In this document: piece by piece, positions 684 through 20,368 of the stretch
How the letters are laid out: every line of letters starts with the position of its first letter
How positions within the stretch are numbered: position 1 is the first letter of the stretch
Assembly (NCBI GenBank): GCA_003344655.1
Contig: MAIU01000017.1
Coordinates: 1 to 20,544, forward strand
Origin: Candidatus Korarchaeota archaeon NZ13-K
GTDB taxonomy: Archaea > Korarchaeota > Korarchaeia > Korarchaeales > Korarchaeaceae
DNA length: 20,544 nucleotides
Direction of reading: 5' to 3'
The notes under the pieces: generated by a model
What the model saw: only the letters and a program-made list of their open reading frames with translations
Database searches by the model: none
What the model was told of the DNA's origin: nothing
Made by a program: the position numbers and the translations under genes

Positions 684-2162
684 TTGAGGGTCATCTTTTT
701 AGATGCGTCCAGCATCGCCTGGGGGATGAGGCTCATAGGCAGGGTGGCGGACGACTCCGGTGAGGTCTCAGCCTCCGTCATACTCCTCAAGGGCCTCGAG
801 AGGGAGGTGACCTCGGAGAGCCTGGTGCTCATAGAGAACGCTGGCTCCGGGAGCAGGGTCTTGGGCATACTGAGGAGGGGGAGGGGGAGGAACGAGTTCC
901 TCAGGAGATCAGGCTATAGGCCGGAGGTGGCCTATCTGAGGCACGGAGGGGAGCCATCGAGCTCAAGGGAGGTCTACTCCTTTGATATCATCGTGCTCGG
1001 GTGCCTTGAGGGAGGAAAGCTGAGGGCCAACAGGATGATAATAGCCCCGGGCTCCCCCGTCTACCTGTTCGATGAGGAGAACCCGCTGGAGCTCATAGCA
1101 GGCTCTGCCAAGAGGTTGGCTTGGATGAGAGCCCACCTGGAGGGGAGGAATGACTGGAGGGTCCCTGCTGATGCCCAGTACATTCCATATCACGTTGGCG
1201 TCTTCGGATCCACGGGGACGGGGAAGTCCTGGTTCACGAGGCACGTGCTCATACCCTTCTACATCGACAACGGCTACAGGGTGATCGTGCTGGACTGGAG
1301 CGGCGAGGACTACGCTCCCTACCTCCCGAGCGTCAGGCTCTCCGAGCTGGCCTTGGACGAGCTCTCGATACTCCAGTACCTCTCGGGGCTCACGGATGAC
1401 TTCGCGGGGAACAACAGCTTGAGGAACGCCTTCGATGATTACGTCTCCGGCTGGGTCGAGAGGGTCAGGGGGAGGGATGAGGTCGAGCTCTACGAGGACC
1501 TGAGGGAGTTCGTTCAGAGGGCGGTCAGGGGGATCAGGAGGGATGACTGGAGGGAGTCGGCGGAGAGGGCCCTCAGCAGGGTCTTCAGGAGGCTCTCCCC
1601 CGGGGACCTGGCCCCCCTGATGGGAACCAGGCCGGTGAGCGAGATCGTTGAGTCCGGGGAGAGGCTGATCGCGGTTGACATGTCCGGCTTCTCCAACGAG
1701 ATCAAGCTAGGCTTCTTCCTGACCCTGGCCAGCGAGCTCAAGAGGAGGATGGTAGCCGGGCAGGATCTCGGGATAGCCCTCGTCATAGACGAGGCCCCCC
1801 AGTACTGCCCTCACAGGCCAGAGGGGATTCAGGCCCAGGTCACCGAGGAGATAAAGAACCTGGCGGCCCTGGGCAGGAAGCACGATCTGAACCTCACGCT
1901 GGTGGCTCAGGGGGTGGCGGGTGAGATAGGGATAAATGCCGCCATAAGGAGGAACCTCAACACGAACTTCTACGGGAGGCTCCATCCCCTCGACGCGGCA
2001 GGTGAGGGGAGCGCCAGGGACTGGCTGGGTCCCTACGGGATAACCCCGGAGTACCTGCTGACCCTCGAGGACGGGAGGTTCTACTTCACGGGCGCCATGA
2101 ACCCCTCGCCGGTCCCCCTTCTCATAACCTTCGAGGTGGAGGGGCTTGGAGGAACGGGATGA
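684..2162 (+). CDS. HerA-like (DUF87/FtsK-HerA superfamily) hexameric ATPase/helicase
   Basis: Walker A 'GVFGSTGTGKS'. Walker B-like 'ALVIDEAPQY' (HerA hhhhDEAH-type). The N-terminal ~130 aa are beta-rich with 'VLGIL...IIVLGCLEG' as in a HAS-barrel. Length 492 aa is typical of HerA. It overlaps the downstream NurA-like gene by 17 nt. Confidence 0.75.
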   Translation: MRVIFLDASSIAWGMRLIGRVADDSGEVSASVILLKGLEREVTSESLVLIENAGSGSRVLGILRRGRGRNEFLRRSGYRPEVAYLRHGGEPSSSREVYSFDIIVLGCLEGGKLRANRMIIAPGSPVYLFDEENPLELIAGSAKRLAWMRAHLEGRNDWRVPADAQYIPYHVGVFGSTGTGKSWFTRHVLIPFYIDNGYRVIVLDWSGEDYAPYLPSVRLSELALDELSILQYLSGLTDDFAGNNSLRNAFDDYVSGWVERVRGRDEVELYEDLREFVQRAVRGIRRDDWRESAERALSRVFRRLSPGDLAPLMGTRPVSEIVESGERLIAVDMSGFSNEIKLGFFLTLASELKRRMVAGQDLGIALVIDEAPQYCPHRPEGIQAQVTEEIKNLAALGRKHDLNLTLVAQGVAGEIGINAAIRRNLNTNFYGRLHPLDAAGEGSARDWLGPYGITPEYLLTLEDGRFYFTGAMNPSPVPLLITFEVEGLGGTG

Positions 2163-3321
2163 GCCGGACTGGGTCAAGCTCCCTCACGCCCTCCAGTCGA
2201 TCTTCTTCGAGAGGGTTGAGGAGGAGGTCTCCTCCCTGATTGGGGAGATAGAGAGGCTTGAGAGATGCATCGAACTCATCAGGGACAGGCTATCCGGTCT
2301 CTTCGAGCCCTACGATGAGAGCGACAGTGTTCTGAGGATAGGGGCCGTTGACGGCTCCAGGTCCCCGGAGATGAGCGAGAGGCTGGGGATAAGGTACGGC
2401 GTCTTCACGACGGGGGCCGTGGTGCTGGAGGGCGGGAGGAGGGTCCGTGAGAGCTATTACGCTGACTCCTTCAGGAGGGAGCAAGCCGCGTCCAGGGAGG
2501 TCAGCAGCTACCTCCTCGATCTCCGCGTGAGCTATGCCGAGAGGAAGCTCGCCCTTGAGTTGCTGGATGATGTGGACTTCCTATTCATAGACGGCAGCTT
2601 CTACGGCTTCGTCTACCCGGTCCTGAGGATGAGGAAGAGGGGGGCGTTCGGGGAGATGGAGGAGTCCCTCTTCAGGGAGATGTGGGAGGTCACTGGGAGA
2701 CTTGTGGAGAGCGGGAAGGTGGCGGGAGTCGTCAAGAGGAGCCACACCAGGGCCATAGGTGGATTCATCGCCACGAAGCTCTTCGATCACCTCCAGGAGC
2801 TCGGGGATCTGGTGGGGGTGATAGACAAGCTCATACTCTCGGCCCTGATGCCCCCGCGCTCTATCTTCAGGTACGAGAGCCTGATAGGAGAGGAGAACGT
2901 CACGGTCTACACGGAGGCGGCCCGCGCCTTCCTCAGGCATGGGAAGTCAGAGGACCTCCTCGAGTTCGCCAGGAAGAAGGCCTATGAGCCTTTCGATAGG
3001 CTGGGGCTCGATCCCGAGGGATTCAGGAGGATGAGGAGGGTTCAGGTCAAGTCCCATCCGGGAGCCCCTGTTTGCGAGATCGAGCACCCCTCCGCGTTCG
3101 AGAGGGTGATCGAGGTGATAAGATCCAGGGGCATGTTCAGCGACGTAACTGGGCTTCCCCTGGCCTTGGACGTCGTGGACTCGCTGGTTGACCTGGGTTC
3201 GAGGTTCACGGAGGAGTACGTGAGCGAGATCGAGGCCAGACTGCTGGAGAGGATGGGAAGGGAAAGACCGAAGCTCATAAGGTGGTTCTTCCATCTCCTA
3301 AACCCTCAGAAGGTCTTCTGA
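2146..3321 (+). CDS. NurA-like 5'-3' nuclease
   Basis: 'RIGAVDGS' (NurA motif I with the catalytic Asp) and a second 'LFIDGSFYG' DGS motif. ~390 aa, translationally coupled to the HerA-like gene. The predicted start overlaps the HerA stop. Confidence 0.7.
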   Translation: MEERDEPDWVKLPHALQSIFFERVEEEVSSLIGEIERLERCIELIRDRLSGLFEPYDESDSVLRIGAVDGSRSPEMSERLGIRYGVFTTGAVVLEGGRRVRESYYADSFRREQAASREVSSYLLDLRVSYAERKLALELLDDVDFLFIDGSFYGFVYPVLRMRKRGAFGEMEESLFREMWEVTGRLVESGKVAGVVKRSHTRAIGGFIATKLFDHLQELGDLVGVIDKLILSALMPPRSIFRYESLIGEENVTVYTEAARAFLRHGKSEDLLEFARKKAYEPFDRLGLDPEGFRRMRRVQVKSHPGAPVCEIEHPSAFERVIEVIRSRGMFSDVTGLPLALDVVDSLVDLGSRFTEEYVSEIEARLLERMGRERPKLIRWFFHLLNPQKVF

Positions 3322-3367: not shown

Positions 3368-4090
3368 ATGCGCGGGAGCGAGTTCTACCCACTTCCCCTC
3401 AGGAACATTCACAGGCTCCTGACGAACCTGGGGCGCGACGCGGATCCGGAGGGCGTGAGGTCCCTGCTCAAGCTCAGGGACAGGAGGAGAGTTGATCAGT
3501 ACGTCAAGACCCTCAGGTGGGTGGCCAGCAGGGTGGAGGACGCTGGCTCCCTGGACGCCTTCATGGAGTCGATGGTCAGGGCTCTGATGAGGGAGTTCTG
3601 GCTGGAGGAGGCCTTCAAGGAGCTGATGGAGAGGGCCATCCCCCTCTCACCTTCCTCCCTCTCCGCCCTGCTGAGGGCGAGGGGGTTGAGCCTGACGGAG
3701 AGCGAGGCCAGGGCGATAATATCATGGATGAGGGAGGCAGGGGCCCTGAGGGAGAGGAAGGTGCCCGTTCTGACCCTATCCCTTGAGGAGAGGGTGCTAG
3801 AGGACGTGAGGAACAGGGGGACAGTCACATACGCGAGCCTCAGGAGGAGCTACGGTGATAACGCCAAGCTGGCGGTATTCTCCCTCTGGAGGAGGGGCCT
3901 TATAAGCGTCCCCTCCCTTGAGAGGTACAGGGACCTGCTGGAGGGGGTGGAGGATCCGGATAGGATACCGGGGAAGGTGGAGGGCAGGATATTCTCCACA
4001 TGGCAGGACAGGACGAGCGGAGAGATGTACAGCGAGCTTGTGATCCCCCAGAGGGAGAGGATATCGGCAAGGTGGCGGCTGGATGCATGA
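3368..4090 (+). CDS. hypothetical protein with two winged-helix-like segments (possible DNA-binding/adaptor component of the cassette)
   Basis: 240-aa ORF with genome-typical codon usage, preceded by GGAGGGA 40 nt upstream. The segments 'LSALLRARGLSLTESEARAIISWMREAGAL' and 'VTYASLRRSYGDNAKLAVFSLWRRGLISV' look like HTH/wH units. Its stop overlaps the next gene's start by 8 nt. No family recognised. Confidence 0.45.
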   Translation: MRGSEFYPLPLRNIHRLLTNLGRDADPEGVRSLLKLRDRRRVDQYVKTLRWVASRVEDAGSLDAFMESMVRALMREFWLEEAFKELMERAIPLSPSSLSALLRARGLSLTESEARAIISWMREAGALRERKVPVLTLSLEERVLEDVRNRGTVTYASLRRSYGDNAKLAVFSLWRRGLISVPSLERYRDLLEGVEDPDRIPGKVEGRIFSTWQDRTSGEMYSELVIPQRERISARWRLDA

Positions 4091-5861
4091 TAGGGATTTG
4101 GAGGGGCTTTACAACAATTACAGGGGCCTGAGACCAACAACTATAAGGTCTATACTCGACTGCTGGGCCGATAGGAGGCCGGTTGAGGAGAGCCTCGAGG
4201 TGATAAGGAGGGTCTTCCCCGGATCCCAGATCCTGGAGTCGACTGCCAGGAGCGTGATGAGGTACCTTCAGGACAGGGATTGGAGGGGTTGCATAGTGAA
4301 CATAATCGGCGACTACGGCTCCGGGAAGACCCAGATGGGGTTCATCCTGCTCAGGATGATAAGGGAGAGGGGGGAGGCACGCGTCAGGATGATCACGGCC
4401 GACCCCCTGACCGAGCTCAGGTCCGAGATCCTAGAGGATGGGGATGAGAGGCCCCTGGTGGTGATAGTGGATGAGGTTGATCTTCTCATCGGCGATATGG
4501 AAAGGGGGAAGCGCGATAGGGTTGAGGAGCTGGCCGATCTGGCAAGGATGATGACGGAGGGGAGCTTCAGTAACCCGGCCAGGGGCTCAGTTATCCTCCT
4601 TCTCTCCAAGAAGGCTCATAGCTCCCTGAAAATGGACAGGGCGCTGAGGAACAGGCTTATCGATAGGGCGAAGGAGTTCTCACTCTCGATGAGTGAGACG
4701 GACAGGGAGAGGGTGAGCCTAGAGGCTGTGAGGAGGATAATAGCCCTCAGGATGGCCTACAGTGAGGAGGATCGCCTGAGGATATTCCGATCCCTCGGGC
4801 TGATATACCCTTTCATGGAGAAGCTGGCCCTCGACCTCTGCTCCATGCATGAGATAGGGGGGATAGTCAAGAACCTGGTCACGGCCCTGGACGACATACT
4901 GAGCGAGCTCACCGACCCGCGGAGCCTTGGTGAGGTTGAGAAGGGGAGGTTCTTCGAGGAGGTGCTCAAGCGCTTCTTCAGCGAGGTATTCAGGAGGGTC
5001 CACTTCAGGGTGACTGTGGGGGATGAGAGGAGGGACTACGTCGCGATCTTCTCGGAGGAGCCCCTGAGCGTCCCCGGAGCCAGAACCGATGCCCATTACG
5101 ACATCAGAACGTACGATGCCGATAGGGGGCTCATCGGAAGCCTCCTGGTGAACCAGGTCGGCTTGGAGATCAAGTACGGGGACTATTGGAAGGAAAACAG
5201 GGATCAGCTCCTGAGGGTGATGGAGAGATACCCCCTGCTCCTGATCTGCGTGACCGAGATGGATGAGGACGAGCTTGCCGATCTGAGGAATCAGATGAGG
5301 GCCGGCGGGAGGGCCTTCGAGATAATGGGCCTGAGCCCCAAGGTCCTGGGGGTGACTCTCACGCTGACGCCGGAGGGGGCTCTGAGGTTCCTGAGGAACT
5401 GGGGAACCTTCGAGAGGGATTTGGAGGAGATCCTGAGCATACTGACGCTGCAGTCGGTGAGGGTAAAGGATAGGGAGGTGAGCGACCAGGATATACTGGC
5501 CCAGGCCTCCTCGGCAATCGTCAGCTCGCTGATGAGGGAGCTCAGGAGGGCCAGGAAGATGGTCAGGACATCGACGCTCTCTGACCTGATCAGGAGGAGC
5601 CTTGAGGGCGTTTACGCCAGGTACGGGAGGGCGGCCCCCGACCTGCCCGAGATCCTCGTGGATAGGATACTCAGGCTTCTGGAGAGGGAGGGCCTGGGGA
5701 GGCTGAGCGAGACCGGTAAGTCCTTCAGCCTGAGCGCGGAATCTAAGAGGAACCTAGAGGAGCTCTCCCTCGATGAGGGAAGGAGGAGGGACATGGAGAG
5801 GGTGGTCTCAGGGATCCTGCTGAGGATGCAGGAGCAGGCCCCCGGACTTGATGCCCTCTGA
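4083..5861 (+). CDS. AAA+/P-loop NTPase with C-terminal putative PD-(D/E)xK nuclease-like region
   Basis: Walker A 'IIGDYGSGKTQ', Walker B 'LVVIVDEVDLL' and sensor-1-like 'VILLLSKK' in the first ~200 aa. The C-terminal region carries 'HYDIRTYDAD-x15-GLEIKYG' (D ... ExK spacing typical of the restriction-endonuclease fold, reminiscent of the DUF234 domain that accompanies Arch_ATPases). 592 aa. Confidence 0.6.
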   Translation: MHDRDLEGLYNNYRGLRPTTIRSILDCWADRRPVEESLEVIRRVFPGSQILESTARSVMRYLQDRDWRGCIVNIIGDYGSGKTQMGFILLRMIRERGEARVRMITADPLTELRSEILEDGDERPLVVIVDEVDLLIGDMERGKRDRVEELADLARMMTEGSFSNPARGSVILLLSKKAHSSLKMDRALRNRLIDRAKEFSLSMSETDRERVSLEAVRRIIALRMAYSEEDRLRIFRSLGLIYPFMEKLALDLCSMHEIGGIVKNLVTALDDILSELTDPRSLGEVEKGRFFEEVLKRFFSEVFRRVHFRVTVGDERRDYVAIFSEEPLSVPGARTDAHYDIRTYDADRGLIGSLLVNQVGLEIKYGDYWKENRDQLLRVMERYPLLLICVTEMDEDELADLRNQMRAGGRAFEIMGLSPKVLGVTLTLTPEGALRFLRNWGTFERDLEEILSILTLQSVRVKDREVSDQDILAQASSAIVSSLMRELRRARKMVRTSTLSDLIRRSLEGVYARYGRAAPDLPEILVDRILRLLEREGLGRLSETGKSFSLSAESKRNLEELSLDEGRRRDMERVVSGILLRMQEQAPGLDAL

Positions 5862-5881
5862 CCGTTTAGCTGGGATCTGGG

Positions 5882-7189
5882 ATGCCGGGCAGAAGGAGCG
5901 TCCTCATCTCCTGCACCCTAGCGTCCTTCCTGACGCCCTTCTCATCCTCCTCCATCACGGTCCTCCTCCCACAGCTATCCTCCCACTTCGGGGTCAGCCT
6001 CGCCGCATCCAACTGGTCGGCCGGGGCCTACCTCATACCCCTTGCCGCATTCATAGTGCCACTCGGGAGGATAGCTGACTGGAAGGGTAGGAGCACCATC
6101 TTCATGATCGGATTGATCTCCTTCTCAGCTTCCTCCCTACTGGCCGCGCTCTCACCTGATTTCACATCCTTCCTCATCTTCAGGTTCCTCCAGGGAATCA
6201 GCTCCTCCATGATCTCGGCCACAGCAGTAGCTGTCCTCTCCGAGGCCTTCCCAAGGGAGGAGAGGGGAAGGGCTGTTGGGGTGAACACCGCCTCTGTCTA
6301 CGTTGGGCTGAGCCTCGGTCCCCTCATGGGGGGCCTGATAGCGGACCTCCTCTCCTGGACTTGGGTCCTCATCCTGAGCTCCCTCGCATCCCTTTTAGCC
6401 CTGCTTCCATCCAGAAATCTCCCGAAGTCCAGGGAATTAAGCTCCCCTCCCAGTCCCGCGCTGATCTCTCTCCACGCCATCTCGATGATCCTCCTGGCGT
6501 ATGGCATCTCCTCCCCGGGTGGGTCCGGTATAGCTATCTCATCCATCGGGGCCGCGCTGCTGGCCGCATGGCTCTCCAGGGAGATGCTCGGGGATGGGAT
6601 CTTGGGTCCTCAGCTCCTCAGGAACGGGGCTTACATGGCATCCTCCACAGCCGCTCTGCTAAACTACAGCGCCACATACGCGATCTCGATAGTGCTCAGC
6701 CTGCACCTCCAGAGGGTGCTTGGCCTACCCGCTAGCGTGGCGGGGATCATTCTGACGGCGCAGCCCATAGTTCAGGCTTTCCTATCACCCCTGGCCGGTT
6801 ACCTCGCTGACAGGATTTCCCCCCACAGGGTGGCCTCGCTCGGGATGATCCTGGTGGCCCTTGGAGTTGTCAGCCTCCTGCCCCTGACGCCATCCAGGCA
6901 GCCAGCGTCACTGCTCCCCTCGCTCCTCTTACTGGGCGTGGGCTTCGCCCTCTTCGCCTCCCCGAACACGGTAGCCGCTTTGAACGCCTCCCCCATCCCT
7001 CTCTACGGTTCAGCCACCGCCTTCCTCGGATCCATGAGGTTCCTGGGCCAGTCCCTGAGCACCTCGATCCTGATGATCCTCATGGCCGGGATGGAGCTCT
7101 CAAGGGCGATGAACGCGGCCCTGATGATCTACGTGGTGATAAGCGCAGCAGGGGCGGTCTTGTCAGCCGTAGCCAGGTACAAAAGGTGA
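5882..7189 (+). CDS. MFS transporter (drug/H+ antiporter-like)
   Basis: Highly hydrophobic protein with ~12 predicted TM segments. MFS motif A-like 'PLGRIADWKGRS' lies between TM2 and TM3. 435 aa. Confidence 0.8.
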   Translation: MPGRRSVLISCTLASFLTPFSSSSITVLLPQLSSHFGVSLAASNWSAGAYLIPLAAFIVPLGRIADWKGRSTIFMIGLISFSASSLLAALSPDFTSFLIFRFLQGISSSMISATAVAVLSEAFPREERGRAVGVNTASVYVGLSLGPLMGGLIADLLSWTWVLILSSLASLLALLPSRNLPKSRELSSPPSPALISLHAISMILLAYGISSPGGSGIAISSIGAALLAAWLSREMLGDGILGPQLLRNGAYMASSTAALLNYSATYAISIVLSLHLQRVLGLPASVAGIILTAQPIVQAFLSPLAGYLADRISPHRVASLGMILVALGVVSLLPLTPSRQPASLLPSLLLLGVGFALFASPNTVAALNASPIPLYGSATAFLGSMRFLGQSLSTSILMILMAGMELSRAMNAALMIYVVISAAGAVLSAVARYKR

Positions 7190-7196
7190 GTCAGTT

Positions 7197-8234
7197 TCAC
7201 TGCTTGAGGAGAGCTATCCCCCCGGGGTTCCTCACCCTGAGGGCCAGCGTCTCCCAGAGCCTGAAGAGGTGCATGCCGTCCTCGGGGCCTATGTAGTCCA
7301 GCTCCGTGTCGGCCCCTATGACTAGATCTAGGACCTGGGGGTTCGATGAGATGAGCAGCGCCTCGTCCTCCTCCAGCGCCGGAACGGCCACCACATCGCC
7401 CACCAGGGCCTTAAGCCTATGCAGCTCCATCACCCCAGTGCGCTCGTGCACCGCAACGAGCTTGGCGTACCTCGAGGGGCTGACCAGGAGCACGTATGGC
7501 TGGGGGAACCCATCCCCAATCATCCCGCTCAGGGCGCCGGCCACCTCGGAAACGGCCGATCCCGGCTCGTCCCATGACGAGATCCTCCCCAACCTCCCTG
7601 CCCTCTCCTTCATCGCCCTGATGAACTCCCTTTCCTCCTCCATCGAGAGCCTCGCGGCAGCCGCGAGGGCGGGGGAGGCGTCGAGGGCGCCGGAGACCTT
7701 GGCGCTGTCCAGAGAGGCCTGGCTTATCGCGAACACCTGGCTCAGCTCCCTCAGCTGGATAACGTACCTCCTCCTGGGCTTGAGGTCCTCGGAGGAGAGA
7801 TCCTCCACGGGCACGGCATCAACTCCCCTTCCGACGCGGGTCACCGGGAGGTGCTTCCTCAGAACCCTGATGCCATCCGCATACCTCCTCACCTCGGCCC
7901 TCAGGTCCGACCACTCCTCCCGCTGGCCGGGAGGATCCTGCCCAGATATTCCCGTGAGCCTAGCGACTTCCTCAGCACCCGATGCGAGTTCCTCAACCTG
8001 CTCCTGATCCAAGGACTTCAGCATAGCCAGGAATTCCCCTACGTGCGTCTTCTCCTCCTTGGCTATGTCCTCGAATACCTTCTTCGCTGCCTGATCCTCC
8101 GTGCAACTGGCCAGCTGCAGGTAGAGGTTTATCGCGTCGAGCTCGGCTATTATGCTCAGGCGGAGCGCCTGGGCCAGCTCCTCCCTGCTTAGCTTCCTCC
8201 CAACGGGGAGCTCAATGGGGTTCTTGCTGAGCAT
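7197..8234 (-). CDS. ferritin-like protein / encapsulin (linocin M18-type) shell protein fusion
   Basis: The N-terminal ~100 aa have ferritin-like di-iron signatures ('IIAELDAINLY', 'EEKTHVGEF', ExxH). The remaining ~245 aa have encapsulin-like length and composition. The total of 345 aa matches the known Flp-encapsulin fusions of Thermococcales virus-like particles (recalled from memory). Confidence 0.55.
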   Translation of the reverse strand: MLSKNPIELPVGRKLSREELAQALRLSIIAELDAINLYLQLASCTEDQAAKKVFEDIAKEEKTHVGEFLAMLKSLDQEQVEELASGAEEVARLTGISGQDPPGQREEWSDLRAEVRRYADGIRVLRKHLPVTRVGRGVDAVPVEDLSSEDLKPRRRYVIQLRELSQVFAISQASLDSAKVSGALDASPALAAAARLSMEEEREFIRAMKERAGRLGRISSWDEPGSAVSEVAGALSGMIGDGFPQPYVLLVSPSRYAKLVAVHERTGVMELHRLKALVGDVVAVPALEEDEALLISSNPQVLDLVIGADTELDYIGPEDGMHLFRLWETLALRVRNPGGIALLKQ

Positions 8235-8250: not shown

Positions 8251-8264
8251 AAATAATATAAATC
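8251..8264 (-). promoter_or_regulatory. TATA box (minus-strand reading TTTATATTATTT) ~23 nt upstream of the encapsulin ATG; leaderless promoter
   Basis: An AT-rich 14-mer in GC-rich context, centred ~23-26 nt upstream of the start codon at 8234. Confidence 0.45.
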
Positions 8265-8309: not shown

Positions 8310-8840
8310 CTACTCCGCCCCATCCCTCCCGGGCCTCACCAGCCTCTCCTCCCTGTCATACTCGATGAGACCGGAGCAGACTCCCCAGTAAATGAGGCAG
8401 TTGAAGGCCTCCTCAAGATCTCCCTGGTGACAGAATCCTCCACTTGAAGCTATTATTCTCATAACCTCCTCCTTCCTGAGGCCTCCCCTCTCCTTCAGCC
8501 TCCTCATCACCTCGCTGAAGACCTCCAGATGCATCAGCTTGCTCCTGATGTAACTACCCCTCTCCGAATGACTCAGCCCCAGGAAATCGATTCCAGATTC
8601 GGTTAGCTTGGCATCACCCTCATCCACCGAGATCAGACCAATCATCTCCAGGAACTCCAGAAGTGGGAGTATCTCATCAGCATGCATGCCCGTCTCCTCG
8701 GATATCCTCGCCACATCAGCCTCCCCGCCCAGATCCCTGAGGAGCCTCAGGAGGCCCAGCACCCTGGAGTAGGACACGGGTAACTCCGACATGGGTCCTT
8801 CACTGAAGGCCCCTCCCAAAAAATAAACTTTGTCCTCCAA
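8310..8840 (-). CDS. small protein resembling the C-terminal AAA-associated domain of NitT/TauT ABC ATPases (stand-alone); alternative start at 8792
   Basis: Immediately follows the ABC ATPase gene on the same strand, 2 nt after its stop. 160-176 aa with wH-like 'LGLLRLLRDLGGEADVARISEETGMHADEILPLLEFLEMIGLI'. Family assignment is tentative. Confidence 0.45.
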   Translation of the reverse strand: MEDKVYFLGGAFSEGPMSELPVSYSRVLGLLRLLRDLGGEADVARISEETGMHADEILPLLEFLEMIGLISVDEGDAKLTESGIDFLGLSHSERGSYIRSKLMHLEVFSEVMRRLKERGGLRKEEVMRIIASSGGFCHQGDLEEAFNCLIYWGVCSGLIEYDREERLVRPGRDGAE

Positions 8841-8842
8841 AC

Positions 8843-9580
8843 TCAGGAGAGGAGACTGTATATCTCATCAACCTTCTCGTAGATGCCCTCATCCCTCCTG
8901 TTCCTGGGCCTCGGTAGGTCTATGTTCACGACCCTCAGAACCACGGAGGGTCTTCTGGATAGGACGACAACCCTATCGGACATTAAAACGGCCTCCTCTA
9001 TGTTGTGCGTCACGAGAATTATGGACTTCAGGCTCGGGGAGCTCTTCCAGAGCTCCAGTATCTCGTGCCTCAGGGTCTCGGCCGTGAGCTCGTCAAGGGA
9101 GGAGAAGGGCTCGTCCATCAGGAGGAGGCTCGGTTCAACGGCCAGGGCCCTGGCTATCCCGACTCTCTGTCTCATCCCACCGGATAGCTCCTTTGGGAGG
9201 AACTCCTCGAACTCCGAGAGTCCGACGAGGCTTAGCCACTTCCTAGCTATCTCCCTCGAGTTCCTCACTCCCCTGGCTCTCAATGGGAGCTCCACCTGCT
9301 CCAACACCTTGAGCCAAGGCACTAAGGCGAAGCTCTGGAAGATCATGGATATCCTTGGATCAGGGGAATCTATCTCCCTCCCATAGAAGGTTATCCTCCC
9401 GGAGCTGGGCCTCTCAATGCCCGCTATCATCCTCAGGATGGTCGATTTCCCGCAGCCACTCGGTCCCACGATAGAGACTAACTCCCCCTCCCTCAGCGAG
9501 AAGCTCACCTCCCTTATAACCTCCAGCTCCTCTCCATCCGAGGGGAAGCGCTTTGAGACCCTATCCAGCTCCAGCATCAT
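8843..9580 (-). CDS. ABC transporter ATP-binding protein, nitrate/sulfonate/taurine (NitT/TauT) family
   Basis: Walker A 'GPSGCGKST', ABC signature 'LSGGMRQRVGIARAL', Walker B 'LLLMDEPFSSLD', H-loop 'ILVTHN'. ATGA overlap with the upstream permease. Confidence 0.85.
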   Translation of the reverse strand: MMLELDRVSKRFPSDGEELEVIREVSFSLREGELVSIVGPSGCGKSTILRMIAGIERPSSGRITFYGREIDSPDPRISMIFQSFALVPWLKVLEQVELPLRARGVRNSREIARKWLSLVGLSEFEEFLPKELSGGMRQRVGIARALAVEPSLLLMDEPFSSLDELTAETLRHEILELWKSSPSLKSIILVTHNIEEAVLMSDRVVVLSRRPSVVLRVVNIDLPRPRNRRDEGIYEKVDEIYSLLS

Positions 9581-11118
9581 TCCACCCTGAATTTGGTCGA
9601 GTAATCGTACAGGAACCTCCAGAGGGTCCTGTTAATGACTATTATGATCGCGGTCAGGACGGCCGTTACGAATATGACTGACGATACGCTTCCCCTCTCC
9701 CACGCAGCGATGCTGAGGAGGGTCCCCAGGCCGTACTGAGATTCATCTCTCGGGAAGACCTCATCCCCCACCTTTATATATTCTGCGACTATGAGGGCAT
9801 TCCAAGCGCCGCCCCAAGCCGTTATCAGACCCGTCACGATCGAGGGGAACATGCCCGGGAGCACGATCTTCCTGAGGTAGAGGAATCCCCTCACTAGGAA
9901 GATCCTCCTCATCTCCTCTAGATCTGACGGTATCGACCTCAAACCGGCGAGGGAGTTGAACATTACGTAGAACTGAGCCCCGAAGAGGGCTAGCATGATA
10001 GCGGCAATCTCAAAACCGATCCCACCCATGGGAAGCACTATGTACCTCACCAGGAAGGGCCAGAGAACGGGAACGGGGAAGGATGCCGCTATCTCGAGAA
10101 CCAACATGAGCTCGTTCCAATGCTTCCCCCTGCCTAACAGGAGGGAGACTGGAAGGGTCCATGTGAGGGAGATCAGGAGCACCGTAAGGACCCTCCTCAT
10201 CGAGTTCAGGGATGCAATCAGGATGAGACCCGGCTCGCTAACGTACTCGGATGAGAGCGACTCCGGTGTCACCGAGAGCGCCGTCCTCACCACCGCGTAA
10301 ACTGTGAATGCCATCAGGAGGAGAGCGGAGATCTTTCCCAGAATTCTGGCCCTTCTCTCAACGAGATTTCCTAATTTCATCAGATGATCCCTCAACCGAA
10401 GCCTTGAGATGCGCCTGATGGTGCGGAAGAAAGCCCTGTGGATGAAGTGGGGGATCCTCACCCAGTGCAGCTCGAGGGGCCTCACCCTCCTCCTCTCCCC
10501 GGCCGAGTACTCGTACTTGAAGTTCTCGCTCCACTCGACGAGGGGCCTCCATATGAAGAGGTACGTGAAGGAGACGAGGAACATCGTCACCAGCACGGAT
10601 ATGACTGCGAGATCAATCCTTGGAGGGGTTTCCATCAGTGACAGGGCGAGAAGGCTCCCCAGGCCCGGGAGCGATATCTCGGCGCTGCCCACCGATATCA
10701 CCTCGGACGCGTAGAGGAAGAACCAGCCTCCAGCCCAGGACATGGCCGAGTTGTAGATCAGCTTCTCCATGGTGGCCGGTATAAGTATCCTTCTGATGTA
10801 AAGAGTCCCCCTGATGCCGTAGATGCGCGTCATCTCCTCCAGATCCCTTGGTATCATCTTCACGGCTTCGTAAACGCCGAAGGTCATGTTCCACACTTGA
10901 GAGGTGAATATGAGGAAGATAGAGGAGATCTCCGCCCCTATGCGCGAGCCGAAGAGGTTCATGAAGAAGATTATGACGACTGGGAAGAAGCCCAGTATTG
11001 GCACGCTCTGCAGCACGTCCAAGACCGGTATCACCAGGTGCTCAGCCTTCTCATTTTTCCCAGCGATGATCCCCACGGAGAGGGAGAATATGAGGGATAA
11101 GATGTACGCGAGGATCAT
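9577..11118 (-). CDS. ABC transporter permease, fused duplicated BPD-transport (TauC/SsuC-like) domains
   Basis: 513 aa with two ~250-aa hydrophobic halves, each with an EAA-like loop region ('SIPSDLEEMRRIFLVRG', 'PRDLEEMTRIYGIRG'). Confidence 0.8.
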   Translation of the reverse strand: MILAYILSLIFSLSVGIIAGKNEKAEHLVIPVLDVLQSVPILGFFPVVIIFFMNLFGSRIGAEISSIFLIFTSQVWNMTFGVYEAVKMIPRDLEEMTRIYGIRGTLYIRRILIPATMEKLIYNSAMSWAGGWFFLYASEVISVGSAEISLPGLGSLLALSLMETPPRIDLAVISVLVTMFLVSFTYLFIWRPLVEWSENFKYEYSAGERRRVRPLELHWVRIPHFIHRAFFRTIRRISRLRLRDHLMKLGNLVERRARILGKISALLLMAFTVYAVVRTALSVTPESLSSEYVSEPGLILIASLNSMRRVLTVLLISLTWTLPVSLLLGRGKHWNELMLVLEIAASFPVPVLWPFLVRYIVLPMGGIGFEIAAIMLALFGAQFYVMFNSLAGLRSIPSDLEEMRRIFLVRGFLYLRKIVLPGMFPSIVTGLITAWGGAWNALIVAEYIKVGDEVFPRDESQYGLGTLLSIAAWERGSVSSVIFVTAVLTAIIIVINRTLWRFLYDYSTKFRVE

Positions 11119-14901: not shown

Positions 14902-15468
14902 TCAAAGCGCACCCCTGTAGCACGCGGAGGCCGGGCAGCCCGGGCAAGAGCCCTCCCCGTACCTCCTGCAGGAGCAGCAGTCGATGCCGCAGGGAGGGGA
15001 GGATCTCTCCACATGCACCCTCAATGGGACGTGTTCAGGATACACTATGGCGCCACCCACGACGACATCGCTCCTCCTGACACCCTCATCCGTCCTAATG
15101 GCGCACTCCGATGTTATCGCCTCGAGCGCTCCCATGTCCTCGGCCACCATGATGGCCAGCAGGTTACCTCCAATGTTCCTGGAGAGGAATATGAGCCTGG
15201 GGCAGTCCCTGAACCTCCTTATTATCCTCTCCTCGGCCTCCCTGTTGACGCACTCGATTGAGATTATCACGTGCCTCAGCCCAAGCTGGGAGGGATTTAT
15301 CCAGGCTGAGATCCTTATCAGTCCCCTCCTCCTGAGGCTTTGGATCCTGTTCCTAACGGCCACATGTGACACACCGAGAGCCCTGCCAAGATTCGAGAGG
15401 GAGGCCCTTCCATCGGCCTGCAGGAGCCTTATGAGCCTCTTCTCCCTCTCACCCAGCCCCCTGATCAT
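14902..15468 (-). CDS. Lrp/AsnC-family transcriptional regulator with cysteine-rich C-terminal extension
   Basis: HTH 'EREKRLIRLLQADGRASLSNLGRALGVSHVAVRNRIQSLRRRGLI' plus a RAM-domain-like region up to ~residue 150. A ~40-aa tail follows with 7 Cys ('CGIDCCSCRRYGEGSCPGCPASAC'). Start ATG at 15468 is chosen because the TATA box sits ~25 nt upstream; the listed 237-aa ORF extends through the promoter. Confidence 0.75.
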   Translation of the reverse strand: MIRGLGEREKRLIRLLQADGRASLSNLGRALGVSHVAVRNRIQSLRRRGLIRISAWINPSQLGLRHVIISIECVNREAEERIIRRFRDCPRLIFLSRNIGGNLLAIMVAEDMGALEAITSECAIRTDEGVRRSDVVVGGAIVYPEHVPLRVHVERSSPPCGIDCCSCRRYGEGSCPGCPASACYRGAL

Positions 15469-15487
15469 ATTACAATTTGTAACTAAA

Positions 15488-15504
15488 ATGTTTATAAAAA
15501 TTAC
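15488..15504. promoter_or_regulatory. Near-palindromic TATA element (AATGTTTATAAAAATTA) in the 61-bp divergent gap; likely bidirectional promoter for the Lrp gene (minus) and the TauE/SafE gene (plus)
   Basis: AT-rich box ~23 nt from the Lrp ATG (15468) and ~27 nt from the TauE ATG (15530). Both genes would be leaderless. Confidence 0.5.
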
Positions 15505-15529
15505 GGAATGAATTTTTACGGTGGGGAGG

Positions 15530-16309
15530 ATGATGCTCCGGGAGATAGCGCTCCTCCTGACGGGCCTGGCCGGCGGCATAGTTGGAGGCCTCTTGGGGAC
15601 CGGAGGCTGCGTCATAATGCTCCCGGCCCTGGCCTTCCTCTTCGGCTACAGGCTGCCCGTGGCCATAGGGACGACCATAACGGCCGTCATAATAACCGCA
15701 AGCTCGGGGGCCGTGGGACACATAAGGATAGGGAACGTCGATTACAAAACTGCCAAGGTCATAGCGATCTCTGGTGCGGTCGGTGCTGCCGTGGGAAGCC
15801 TTATATTCATCCTGCTCGCTGGAAACACTTCCATCCTAAGCCTGATACTTGGCCTGGCCTTCCTCTACGTCTCGATCAGGATGATATATGAGGGCTCGAG
15901 GAGGTCCATGGGCGCAGGGGAGGGGAAGGAGATACCGGGAAGCGGTGCGAGGAAAGGTATACTTGGCTTCCTCATAGGAGTCCTAACCGGTATAGTGGGA
16001 CTGGGAGGCGGATACGCCCTGGTTCCCTCGTTCATCTACATCCTCGGAGCCCCCGTGAAGCTGGCCGTTGGAACATCCCTAGCCTCCTTCATATCGATGG
16101 CCCTCGTCTCGGGGGCCTTCAAGCTCGCCCAGGGTTACGTTGATCTGATAGCAGCTCTCCTCCTGGGAGTTGGAACCGCCTTTGGGGCCCAGATAGGGGC
16201 GAGACTCGTTCCCAAGCTCCCGGCATGGGCGATAAAGCTTCTATTCGGGCTGGTGTTCCTCTACGTCTCCCTTAAGTTCATACTCACCCCCCTGGGCATC
16301 AGGATCTGA
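15530..16309 (+). CDS. TauE/SafE (DUF81) family membrane protein, putative sulfite/anion exporter
   Basis: Two repeated 4-TM halves with glycine-rich 'LAGGIVGGLLGTGGCVIMLPAL' and 'VLTGIVGLGGGYALVPSFI' motifs. ATG 15530 is preferred over the listed GTG 15521. Confidence 0.8.
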   Translation: MMLREIALLLTGLAGGIVGGLLGTGGCVIMLPALAFLFGYRLPVAIGTTITAVIITASSGAVGHIRIGNVDYKTAKVIAISGAVGAAVGSLIFILLAGNTSILSLILGLAFLYVSIRMIYEGSRRSMGAGEGKEIPGSGARKGILGFLIGVLTGIVGLGGGYALVPSFIYILGAPVKLAVGTSLASFISMALVSGAFKLAQGYVDLIAALLLGVGTAFGAQIGARLVPKLPAWAIKLLFGLVFLYVSLKFILTPLGIRI

Positions 16310-17727: not shown

Positions 17728-17964
17728 GAGGGGAAGGTCCAGGCCATGAATTTAACTTTTTGGGGGCTGGGGATGGAGTCGTGGGACGTAGCCCGCTGAT
17801 CATCCATGCAGCCCCCGAGATCGTCGAGCTCACCTCCTCGCATGACATCGGATGTATGGAGCGCCTCCATGCCATTCGATCCTCCCCTCTCGGAGCTTCA
17901 TCCTATCTGTGGGACCCCTTCAGCTGCTCAGCGAGCCGCTTTAATGATCACGGCATCTCATGAG

Positions 17965-17975
17965 CTTTATAAATT
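17965..17975 (+). promoter_or_regulatory. TATA box (CTTTATAAATT) ~22 nt upstream of the probable P-type ATPase start
   Basis: This AT-rich box lies inside the first 16 nt of the listed ORF (17960..), so the true start is most likely the ATG at 17996. Confidence 0.45.
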
Positions 17976-17995
17976 CGACTGGACATCGGCTCGCA

Positions 17996-20368
17996 ATGGA
18001 AGCGGACATTGAGGAGATCCTCCGCACTCTTGGCAGTTCCCCAAGGGGACTGAGCGAGGAGGAGGCCGAGAGAAGGCTGCGGGAGCTGGGACCGAACGAG
18101 GTCACGGAGAGGAAGGAGAATCCGCTGCTCAAGTACCTGAGGAGATACTGGGGTCCGCTGCCGTGGCTCATGGAGGCCACGGCTATCCTCTCCTACCTGA
18201 CGGGCAGGGTCCTCGAGGCCGGGATCATGATCGCGCTCCTCGTGATGAACGCCACCCTGGGGCACCTCCATGCCAGGTCCAGCAGGAGAGCCATCGAGTC
18301 GTTGAGGAGGAGGCTTCGCGTGAAGGTCAGCGTCCTCCGCGATGGAAGGTGGGTCGAGAAGGATGCGAGGGAGCTCGTCCCAGGGGATGTCATCTTCCTC
18401 AGGCTGGGAAGCATGGTCCCGGCTGACTCGAGGATCATTGAGGGCGAACTGCTCGTGGATCAGTCCGCCCTCACCGGGGAGAGCCTCCCGGTGGAGAGGA
18501 GGAGGGGGGAAATTCTCTTCTCAGGCTCCTTGGTGAAGCGCGGTGAGGCTAAATGCGTCGTGGTGAGCACGGGCAGCAGGACTTACTACGGCAGGACCAT
18601 AGAGCTCGTCAAATCCGCTGATTCGAGATCCCTCCAGGAGGAGACCATCCTGACCGTCATGAGGAATATGTTCTTTCTGGGTGTGATCGGCCTCGCAATA
18701 GCTTTTGCCGTTGGGATCTACGAGGGGTGGAGATTATTTGATCTGATCAGCCTTGGCATCGTTTTCCTCATGTCCTCGGTCCCAGTCGCCCTTCCAGCCG
18801 TCCTCACGATACTCCAGGCATATGGGGCCATCGAGATGTCCAGGCGGGGGATCCTGGTCACGAGACTGGGCGCCTCGGAGGACCTGGCGGCTGTGGATGT
18901 AATGTGCTTCGACAAGACAGGGACCCTGACGCTCAACAGGCTCCGGGTCGCTCAAATAGATGCCCTGAATGTGAGCGAGGAAAAGCTTTTGGAGTACGCC
19001 TCGTGCGTTGCGAGGGAGGAGTCCCTCGATCCGCTGGAGCTAGCGATAATCGAGCGCACCCGTGGCATCGGGGTGGGGAGGCTCAGACTGCTGAAGCTCA
19101 CCCCCTTCGATCCCTCCCTAAAGAGGAGGGAGGCCACCGTGGAGGAGGACGGCAGGATGATCAGGATCGCGCTAGGGGAGCCCCACACGATCCTCGGGCT
19201 TTGCGAGCAGGGAGAGGCCGAGAGGAGGTTCCTAGAGGAGAAGCTCTCGGAAGCCTCGAGTAAGGGCCTCAGAACCCTGGCCGTTGCCGCGGGCAATGAG
19301 AACGATCCTAATCTCAGGTTCCTCGGCCTCATACACATGCTGGATCCCCCAAGACCGGAGTCAGGCGAACTCATAAGGGAGCTGAGGGATCTGGGCGTCA
19401 GGCCCATGATGCTGACCGGTGACAACGAGGCGGTGGCGCGGGAGATAGCCCGCTTGGTCGGCTTGGGAGAGAAGGTCATCTCCGTGCGGAGGATTCGGGA
19501 GGGCGTTGACATCGAGGAACTTGACGGCCTCGCGGAGGTCCTCCCCGAGGATAAGTTCGACATCGTGAGGGGGCTTCAGCAGAGAGGGCACATCGTCGCC
19601 GTGACCGGGGACGGGGTCAACGATGCCCCGGCCCTTAGTCAGGCTGATGTGGGCATCGCCGTAGAGGGCGCGACGGATGCCGCGAAGAGCGCTGCCAGCA
19701 TCGTGCTCGTCAGATCCGGGCTCTCCGTCATAGTCGATGCGGTGAGGATCAGCAGGGTGATACATGAGAGGGCCCTGACGTGGGTCGTGAACAAGATAGT
19801 GAAGATCCTGCAGACGATTGGGGTCATGCTACTGGCGATGCTCTGGATCAGGAGAATGGCACTGACCCCGCTTGACATGGCGCTTCTCCTAATTGCGAAC
19901 GACTTCCTAACGATGTCCATAGCGACTGACAACCAGACACCCTCGAAGAAGCCCGCGAGATGGGAAATGCGGAGAATTCTGGAGTTCTCCCTTCCAATGG
20001 GCCTCCTATACGTTATTCCTCCCTTGGCGGTGCTCTGGCTGGCCCTGCATCTCGGGCTGGATTGGAGCACCTCGAGGGGGATGCTACTCCTCTCCCTCAT
20101 CTACACCAGCCAGTTCAGGATCCTGCAGGCCAGGGAGAGGGGGTTCTTCTGGAGATCGAGGCCGGGCCGGGAGCTGATCCTCTCGATGCTGGGAACATCA
20201 TCCATCTTCACCCTTATGGCCCTCGCCGGTTTCATTGTCCCCAGGCTCACCTTGGGGGAGGTTTCATTGGCATTGGCCCTCTCATCTACGATCCTCCTGA
20301 CGGACCCCCTGAAGGTGGCCCTGGCGAATGGGATCATAGGCCGGGGGTTCGGGGTTCGGCTTACATAG
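17996..20368 (+). CDS. P-type ATPase, type IIIA-like (plasma-membrane H+-ATPase family)
   Basis: Phosphorylation motif 'CFDKTGTLT', hinge 'VAVTGDGVNDAPAL', 'MLTGDN', and an N-terminal 'LSEEEAERRLRELGPNEVTERKENPLLKYLRRYWGPLPWLME' resembling PMA/AHA-type pumps. ~790 aa. Start moved from 17960 to 17996 because of the TATA box. Confidence 0.85.
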   Translation: MEADIEEILRTLGSSPRGLSEEEAERRLRELGPNEVTERKENPLLKYLRRYWGPLPWLMEATAILSYLTGRVLEAGIMIALLVMNATLGHLHARSSRRAIESLRRRLRVKVSVLRDGRWVEKDARELVPGDVIFLRLGSMVPADSRIIEGELLVDQSALTGESLPVERRRGEILFSGSLVKRGEAKCVVVSTGSRTYYGRTIELVKSADSRSLQEETILTVMRNMFFLGVIGLAIAFAVGIYEGWRLFDLISLGIVFLMSSVPVALPAVLTILQAYGAIEMSRRGILVTRLGASEDLAAVDVMCFDKTGTLTLNRLRVAQIDALNVSEEKLLEYASCVAREESLDPLELAIIERTRGIGVGRLRLLKLTPFDPSLKRREATVEEDGRMIRIALGEPHTILGLCEQGEAERRFLEEKLSEASSKGLRTLAVAAGNENDPNLRFLGLIHMLDPPRPESGELIRELRDLGVRPMMLTGDNEAVAREIARLVGLGEKVISVRRIREGVDIEELDGLAEVLPEDKFDIVRGLQQRGHIVAVTGDGVNDAPALSQADVGIAVEGATDAAKSAASIVLVRSGLSVIVDAVRISRVIHERALTWVVNKIVKILQTIGVMLLAMLWIRRMALTPLDMALLLIANDFLTMSIATDNQTPSKKPARWEMRRILEFSLPMGLLYVIPPLAVLWLALHLGLDWSTSRGMLLLSLIYTSQFRILQARERGFFWRSRPGRELILSMLGTSSIFTLMALAGFIVPRLTLGEVSLALALSSTILLTDPLKVALANGIIGRGFGVRLT

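Follow-up and report, generated by a model that had tools for sequence, protein, structure and literature searches.

A probable Flp/EncFtn-fusion family 1 encapsulin gene in Candidatus Korarchaeota archaeon NZ13-K

A single gene of Candidatus Korarchaeota archaeon NZ13-K very probably encodes the only subunit of an archaeal Flp/EncFtn-fusion family 1 encapsulin, an iron-oxidising nanocompartment whose assembly and iron function we assign by analogy with homologous particles. The gene joins an N-terminal half-ferritin domain to a C-terminal shell domain, and it is an ordinary, under-annotated member of a fusion design that is well described in heat-loving archaea. In this work, the window is the whole stretch of DNA that was analysed, which is 20,544 nucleotides long.

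In the ORF listing of the window, the gene is a real open reading frame of 345 amino acids on the minus strand, with an ATG start and a TGA stop. Its product is 100% identical to the NCBI entry 'MAG: rubrerythrin family protein [Candidatus Korarchaeota archaeon NZ13-K]', and the NCBI lineage of NZ13-K (Archaea; Thermoproteota) provides the archaeal host that is characteristic of the fusion-FLP class. The GC content of the window is 58.6%, close to the ~60% that a first-pass annotation had given for the genome, and that of the third codon positions in the encapsulin gene is 82%. Two plus-strand ORFs, 7306-8007 and 7851-8192, overlap the encapsulin gene antisense, and we treat them as shadow ORFs within a GC3-rich gene. 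The following features are assigned to the locus:

7197..8234, minus strand: complete Flp/EncFtn-fusion family 1 encapsulin shell gene, 345 aa, with the stop codon at 7197-7199 (ORF listing, phmmer match to 2e0z_A, identity to the NCBI protein)
7950..8234, minus strand: N-terminal EncFtn/Flp domain, residues 1-95, with two long antiparallel helices and a shorter third (phmmer match to 5n5e, EncB_fam, AlphaFold2)
8142..8144, minus strand: codon of E31, ferroxidase-centre glutamate (invariant in 40/40 homologues; aligned with the P. furiosus ferroxidase-centre glutamate)
8121..8123, minus strand: codon of Y38, tyrosine beside the ferroxidase centre (invariant in 40/40 homologues; equivalent of EncFtn Tyr38)
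8043..8069, minus strand: codons of D56-I-A-K-E-E-K-T-H64, the DxxxEEx(A/T)H signature with a single ExxH at E61 and H64 (sequence; PMC11202242)
7920..7949, minus strand: flexible linker from the EncFtn domain to the shell, residues ~96-105, GISGQDPPGQ region (AlphaFold2 pLDDT <50, length variation in the alignment)
7200..7919, minus strand: HK97-fold encapsulin shell domain, residues 106-345 (PF04454, NF041155, AlphaFold2 model, Foldseek)
7845..7868, minus strand: codons of R123-V-L-R-K-H-L-P130, equivalent of the fusion peptide RSLLKHLP in P. furiosus (sequence; PMC11202242, Table 2)
8255..8262, minus strand: TATA-like box TTTATATT, putative archaeal promoter, -28 to -21 from the ATG (conserved in korarchaeal orthologues)

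The two domains lie in one polypeptide, where the match to 5n5e covers residues 2-97 and the match to encapsulin shells covers residues 104-345; in other words, the iron domain is fused to the N-terminus of the shell. Judged from these comparisons, the two-domain ORF is real, the match scores being far beyond chance. The protein sequence contains no methionine between M71 and M198 at which translation of a shell-only product could begin. The first-pass annotation had described a single 345-residue ORF combining a ferritin-like domain and an encapsulin shell, and this is confirmed by PF02915 and EncB_fam on the one side and by PF04454 and encap_f1 on the other.

For the shell part, two curated family models score above their cut-offs: Pfam Linocin_M18 (PF04454) gives 102.6 bits (cut-off 24.3) over residues 104-331, and NCBIfam encap_f1 (NF041155, 'family 1 encapsulin nanocompartment shell protein') gives 108 bits (cut-off 100) over residues 104-340. 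A structural model of the 345-residue protein was made by AlphaFold2 from a 40-sequence alignment; its mean pLDDT is 83, and most of the shell region exceeds 88. All the elements of the HK97 fold are seen in the model, namely the N-helix (109-122), the E-loop hairpin (140-160), the P-domain with its spine helix (187-211), and the A-domain (226-300). When the model is compared with the PDB by Foldseek, the best match is the shell of the P. furiosus particle PfV (2e0z_A, E=1e-21, target TM-score 0.91, rmsd 2.3 A), and every one of the best 50 matches is an encapsulin shell. The C-terminal ~240 residues therefore model confidently as an HK97-type shell, as the first reading of the sequence had proposed, and on the model residues ~104-345 are the shell domain of a family 1 encapsulin. 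Shells of the T=3 and T=4 classes outmatch T=1 shells both in sequence (~1e-17 versus 1e-5 by phmmer against the PDB) and in fold by Foldseek.

The N-terminal part is most similar to the EncFtn domain of P. furiosus (5n5e, E=3e-25, residues 2-97) and, by the same program, phmmer, matches EncC (7s8t) with E=6e-12. NCBIfam EncB_fam (NF058679) aligns with residues 4-99 at E=5e-25. As for scores, the EncFtn-specific models fall slightly under their cut-offs in the case of Pfam EncFtn-like (PF22277, 24.2 versus 27) and EncB_fam (87.7 versus 90), and a further EncFtn-specific model, TIGR04535, scores 62.7 against a cut-off of 125. Probably, these sub-cut-off scores reflect the training of the models on free-standing cargo proteins. 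In the AlphaFold2 model, the domain consists of helices 17-44, 48-75 and 77-94, that is, a hairpin followed by a short third helix.

The ferroxidase residues consist of one glutamate, one tyrosine, and one ExxH in each chain. None of the 40 homologues in the alignment differs at E31, Y38, E60, E61 or H64, and D56 is found in 37 of them; when the EncFtn domain of P. furiosus is aligned, its ligands fall at exactly the same positions, which bears out the di-iron assignment made earlier. In contrast, the two E...ExxH-type segments that had been reported are not there: residues 1-103 contain a single upstream ligand glutamate (E31), a single ExxH (E61-K-T-H64), and a single histidine (H64). Since there is only one such set per chain, a di-iron site must form across a homodimer. 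This agrees with what is known of EncFtn, in which the ferroxidase centre is assembled across a metal-mediated dimer interface, with Tyr38 at that interface, and the open annular oligomer has no iron-storage capacity of its own and needs a shell (10.1101/431494). From its sequence, we consider that the region of residues 1-97 is an EncFtn half-ferritin domain with two long helices, without a complete di-iron four-helix bundle.

Both of the motifs specific to the fusion class are found in the protein. One is D56-IAK-EE-K-T-H64, which conforms to the DxxxEEx(A/T)H signature given for archaeal fusion-Flps in a 2024 review (PMC11202242). The other is R123-VLRKHLP-130, which corresponds to the peptide RSLLKHLP that connects Flp to the shell protomer in P. 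furiosus (PMC11202242, Table 2); in the 40-sequence alignment, R123 is conserved in 39, L129 in 33, and P130 in 31 sequences. Between the two domains, residues 89-105 form a disordered stretch with pLDDT <50. The linker is the most length-variable region of the alignment, ranging from 6 to 38 residues, and the 12 residues of the korarchaeal protein are among the shortest.

At least 296 database clusters match the protein at E<=1e-5, and both domains (Rubrerythrin and Linocin_M18) are present in all of the best 120 of these clusters. Among the matches listed, the nearest relatives are 63-81% identical and include a 'Candidatus Korarchaeum sp.' protein labelled 'encapsulin'. The next relatives, at ~50-58% identity, come from Ignisphaera, Thermofilum, Pyrobaculum calidifontis, Desulfurococcaceae, Sulfolobales and Nitrososphaerota. 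The relatives in Thermoproteota number in the hundreds and, at ~55% identity, are closer than P. furiosus PfV (37%). In a neighbour-joining tree, the NZ13-K protein and five others (P0003, P0004, P0006, P0007 and P0008; 63-81% identity) form a korarchaeal clade amid Thermoproteota fusion encapsulins, with PfV as a distant outgroup; placement in a phylogeny had been suggested earlier as a check. The linkers of this clade are 12-15 residues long, versus up to 38 elsewhere. The architecture had been attributed to the virus-like-particle protein of Thermococcales; it is indeed the same as that of PfV, but the position of the clade indicates that the fusion is not peculiar to Thermococcales, the nearest relatives being korarchaeal and Thermoproteota proteins. 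A previous census found the Flp-fusion architecture 'mostly in the phylum Crenarchaeota' (PMC8346489). No mention of encapsulins together with Korarchaeota or Korarchaeum was found in the searchable literature, and the part of the 2021 census supplement that we examined has no korarchaeal entry.

The region upstream of the gene contains the TATA-like box, and no Shine-Dalgarno-like sequence occurs between the TTTATATT box and the encapsulin ATG. The string TTTATA is confined to three distinct sites over the entire 20.5-kb window, and start codons follow two of them at a distance of 28-30 nt. At orthologous loci L005 and L006, a TTTATATTAT box, as at the korarchaeal NZ13-K gene, is found at -28, whereas L003 and L004 have TTAATATT at -30. 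The TTTATATTAT box of L001 and L002 lies 27 nt upstream of the ATG of a conserved MLSKNP start, which implies that the start of P0008 has been miscalled and that its 12 additional N-terminal residues are read through the promoter. Since the box geometry is kept in orthologues, the gene is probably transcribed alone from this putative TATA box as a leaderless or near-leaderless mRNA. With regard to the leaderless TATA promoter that the first-pass annotation had assigned to the gene, the box at -28..-21 and the lack of a Shine-Dalgarno-like sequence hold, and the leaderless transcript is a prediction from sequence. A scan for sigma-70 promoters and intrinsic terminators gave a promoter-like match at 8427-8456 on the plus strand, which was set aside because such a scan is uninformative for an archaeon.

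The neighbouring genes encode HerA, NurA, the unannotated proteins hyp240 and hyp592, a DHA2-like MFS transporter, and a NitT/TauT-type ABC transporter. The MFS gene is convergent with the encapsulin gene, with the two stop codons 7 bp apart, and the ABC transporter (8310-11118) is located upstream of the encapsulin gene on the same strand. Searches with hyp240 and hyp592 gave faint matches only, to one TPR-like and one P-loop segment and to a PHROG family described as 'DNA transposition protein' (E=0.0045). The encapsulin gene also stands alone at the loci of the korarchaeal relatives, where the recurring neighbours are limited to the MFS gene and the hyp-hyp-MFS block.

Two candidate partners were considered and rejected. 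The ABC transporter is NitT/TauT-like, for nitrate, sulfonate or taurine rather than iron, and is missing from the orthologous loci. A 77-aa ORF adjoins the encapsulin gene in L001-L004; the proteins of L001 and L003 are mutually unrelated, and the ORF has no counterpart in the window.

As for cargo, the window yielded no gene for a ferritin, a DyP, a hemerythrin or a rubrerythrin when all its larger ORFs were scanned with Pfam and NCBIfam. In addition, a search of the C-terminal 30 residues of all stop-to-stop ORFs of at least 40 aa in the whole window found no cargo-loading peptide at any genuine protein C-terminus; the sole C-terminus resembling a targeting peptide belongs to a 40-aa ORF antisense to a real gene and was discarded. 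The earlier statement that there is no separate cargo gene thus holds within these 20.5 kb, and for the window alone.

By analogy with P. furiosus and bacterial homologues, about 180 copies of the protein would self-assemble into a T=3 icosahedral shell of ~30 nm. The T=3 class is suggested by PfV, and also by the better scores of T=3/T=4 shells over T=1 shells; the Flp-fusion encapsulins of P. furiosus and S. solfataricus both form T=3 shells with the Flp internalised (PMC8346489). The N-terminal domains would face inward, so that the cargo would be loaded by covalent attachment and no targeting peptide would be needed. Inside the shell, EncFtn domains may pair via their metal-binding faces to give a four-helix, ferritin-like di-iron ferroxidase centre. 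Fe(II) passing through the shell pores would then be oxidised at these centres, and the Fe(III) mineral would collect in the shell lumen because EncFtn lacks a cavity of its own. The likely benefit to an anaerobic hot-spring korarchaeon would be that Fe(II) is kept from O2 and H2O2 and that an iron reserve is built up. Note that the assembly and iron functions are carried over from homologues only 37% identical overall and ~56% identical in the EncFtn domain.

The short linker raises a question of arrangement. The excised EncFtn domain of P. furiosus forms D5 decamers, and 180 tethered domains cannot all make D5 decamers compatible with icosahedral symmetry (PMC11202242). It is conceivable, though we think it unlikely, that the short-tether domains of the korarchaeal clade are unable to meet as D5 decamers and instead form isolated dimers under the two-fold and quasi-two-fold axes. 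If so, the protein would be a convenient minimal system for studying how 180 fused Flp domains are arranged in a T=3 shell.

The same particle may serve mainly in defence against oxidative stress and less in iron storage: like Dps, it would sequester Fe(II) and at the same time consume O2 or H2O2, and the mineral core would be a by-product. We regard this as a possibility to be kept in mind, rather less probable than not. The host lineage is anaerobic and thermophilic, so an oxidant for the ferroxidase would presumably be available only under stress, and a gene for a hemerythrin/PAS protein adjoins the orthologue in L001 and L002. However, the window lacks genes of the stress response, for example those for rubrerythrin, peroxiredoxin or superoxide reductase. 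Moreover, oxidative-stress defence and iron storage are inseparable by sequence analysis and are not mutually exclusive.

A viral reading has a history in this family, the P. furiosus 'virus-like particle' having first been read in this way: the gene might belong to an HK97-type provirus, intact or decayed, and encode its major capsid protein. The fold is that of the HK97 capsid, the closest solved structure is deposited as 'Virus-like particle', and a publication on the S. solfataricus homologue calls it a 'fossil record of an archaeal HK97-like provirus' (reference 36 in PMC8346489). Nevertheless, we consider this reading very improbable for the korarchaeal gene. The protein has no match to PHROG families at E<=0.01 and none in a tblastn search against 50,697 phage records, and the 20.5-kb window contains no portal, terminase, protease, integrase or tRNA gene; that is, neither similarity to a viral family nor linkage to morphogenesis genes is found in the window, a non-viral setting as is usual for a family 1 encapsulin. 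In addition, the cellular flanks (hyp240-hyp592-MFS and NurA/HerA) recur near the orthologue in other korarchaeal contigs, and the strictly conserved N-terminal ferroxidase domain indicates a cellular enzymatic function.

The public record implies a soluble rubrerythrin-family peroxidase, in which the C-terminal part would be an unrelated extension. The name 'rubrerythrin family protein' at NCBI is in keeping with the Pfam Rubrerythrin model (PF02915), which matches residues 24-81 above its cut-off (E=7e-8, 33.3 versus 22.8 bits). However, this match is limited to half a bundle (profile positions 3-62 of 137), and the features of a rubrerythrin, namely a complete four-helix bundle, two ExxH motifs and a Cys4 rubredoxin-like domain, are lacking. 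The chain has one ExxH rather than two, and C44 is the single cysteine of the entire protein, so that a rubredoxin-type CxxC...CxxC domain is impossible. The NCBIfam model RuberyRbr (NF045767) gives 13 bits against a cut-off of 200, and the C-terminal 240 residues are strongly supported as an encapsulin shell domain. We find this reading scarcely tenable. A secreted bacteriocin of the linocin M18 type, which has only the family name in its favour (the historical 'Linocin_M18' of PF04454 and the name 'uncharacterized linocin/CFP29 family protein' that homologues carry at JGI), can practically be dismissed, since all solved family members are shell-forming encapsulins, Pfam detects nothing in the whole protein besides the ferritin-like and shell domains, and none of the adjacent genes is an export gene.

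With the gene taken as a Flp-fusion family 1 encapsulin, the direct consequence is one of annotation: the public label 'rubrerythrin family protein' should be replaced accordingly. The fusion class is documented in Korarchaeota, yet close relatives are already called 'encapsulin' at NCBI, and the organism is filed under Thermoproteota, the phylum in which the class is most frequent. The placement of the korarchaeal proteins among those of Thermoproteota, and far from Thermococcales, adds a little to what is known of how the fusion evolved. For nanocage engineers, a thermostable and self-loading iron nanocompartment that is made from one gene and has a short linker could be of interest. The value of the finding is modest, and the current understanding of the fusion class is unchanged.

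Among known systems, the closest with a solved structure is P. furiosus PfV/PF1192, for which both the shell (2E0Z) and the EncFtn domain (5N5E) have been deposited. The two proteins are both 345 residues long and collinear from end to end (phmmer E=9e-55), with the same order of domains. E31, Y38, E61 and H64 occupy identical native positions; both proteins have A30 and D33 where the entry-site glutamates stand in bacteria; and both contain the DxxxEExxH motif and the R-x-L-x-K-H-L-P fusion peptide. The shell folds superpose with the TM-score and rmsd given above. On the other hand, the identity counted from the alignment is 37% overall, ~56% in the EncFtn domain and ~31% in the shell, and the korarchaeal linker has 12 residues versus 17 in PfV by the same measure. 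The hosts also differ: the korarchaeon, with ~59% GC, is from a terrestrial hot spring, and P. furiosus is a marine euryarchaeon.

The Flp-fusion encapsulins of Thermoproteota/Crenarchaeota (Saccharolobus solfataricus, Pyrobaculum calidifontis, Thermofilum and Ignisphaera) have the same architecture and 50-58% full-length identity, whereas the korarchaeal proteins form a separate clade with short linkers of 12-15 residues. In the census, ferritin-like or rubrerythrin neighbours are frequent beside Flp-fusion encapsulins (PMC8346489); in contrast, such a neighbour is absent from the NZ13-K locus and from the korarchaeal loci examined.

The two-gene bacterial EncFtn systems, such as those of Rhodospirillum rubrum, Haliangium ochraceum and Myxococcus xanthus (EncA with EncB/EncC), belong to the same shell family (E ~1e-16 to 1e-18) and also employ a half-ferritin with its ferroxidase centre at a dimer interface, where the cargo oxidises iron and the shell stores it. 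There, cargo and shell are distinct proteins, and docking depends on a targeting peptide at the C-terminus of the cargo, for example SLGIGSLK (PMC11202242), whereas the korarchaeal cargo is covalently fused to the N-terminus of the shell, which fixes the stoichiometry at 1:1. At the secondary metal sites, the korarchaeal protein has A30/D33 and D56 instead of the bacterial Glu/Glu and His.

The public name of the protein encoded at 7197-8234, "rubrerythrin family protein", leaves the encapsulin domain out of account, and the encapsulin matches only half the length of the Rubrerythrin Pfam model. This name is an under-annotation and deserves correction.

The annotated start of a korarchaeal orthologue probably also calls for revision. 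The protein P0008, encoded at the related loci L001 and L002, is annotated with 12 extra N-terminal residues, MEHLYYLAVIQL (8001-8036). The true start is probably the ATG of the conserved MLSKNP N-terminus, at 8037 of L001/L002, because the codons of the extension contain the conserved promoter box TTTATATTAT. Comparable N-terminal extensions are found in four other homologues, P0032, P0082, P0109 and P0119, and may have the same cause.

At its 3' end, the encapsulin gene converges with an MFS transporter gene, with 7 bp between the stop codons (7187-7199); in the Korarchaeum sp. contigs, the two genes overlap by 11 nt (L005 9028-9038). The transcripts of the two genes must either overlap at their 3' ends or terminate within the coding region of the opposite gene. 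The window has a TTTT run at 7181-7184, 13-16 nt beyond the encapsulin stop. In one korarchaeal relative (L001/L002 9773-11050), the gene directly downstream of the encapsulin gene, on the opposite strand, encodes a DUF438/hemerythrin/PAS protein, a neighbour that might sense O2 or iron; this protein is absent from the window.

The neighbouring features of the window are as follows.

70-537: ORF with an MCM C-terminal winged-helix domain (PF21100)
684-3321: HerA (DUF87) and NurA gene pair
3368-7189: two proteins without family assignment, then the MFS transporter
8310-11118: NitT/TauT-like ABC transporter, three genes
14902-15615, minus strand: AsnC-type HTH regulator, longest ORF
15521-16309, divergent from the regulator: TauE/SafE exporter gene
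17960-20368: P-type cation ATPase gene; its longest ORF encodes 802 aa

The three genes of the ABC transporter encode a 513-aa fused double permease, in which the BPD_transp_1 domain occurs twice, a 245-aa ATPase and, as a separate protein of 176 aa, a "C-terminal AAA-associated domain" (PF09821); no gene for a substrate-binding protein was recognised within the window.

Two further start codons are open to question. In the AsnC-type regulator, the HTH begins only at residue 56 of the longest ORF, and therefore the start is probably further downstream. In the case of the P-type ATPase, TTTATA at 17966 falls just within the putative start, so that the real start may also be downstream. The longest regulator ORF and the beginning of the exporter gene share 95 nt, and the exporter's TATA box, TTTATAAA at ~15491, also lies inside this ORF.

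The block that consists of the two unassigned proteins and the MFS transporter is common to the window and another korarchaeal genome (L001 11266-15051). The first protein (240 aa) has a faint TPR-like match; the second (592 aa) has a faint P-loop match and a match to the PHROG "DNA transposition protein" (E=0.0045).

The ORF at 70-537 may represent the 3' part of an MCM helicase gene, the rest of which would lie beyond the start of the window. As for the adjacent HerA/NurA pair, the related korarchaeal genome has the order NurA followed by HerA (L001 1-3059), and its HerA is a protein of 832 aa that contains an intein, whereas the HerA of the window has 492 aa and lacks the intein.
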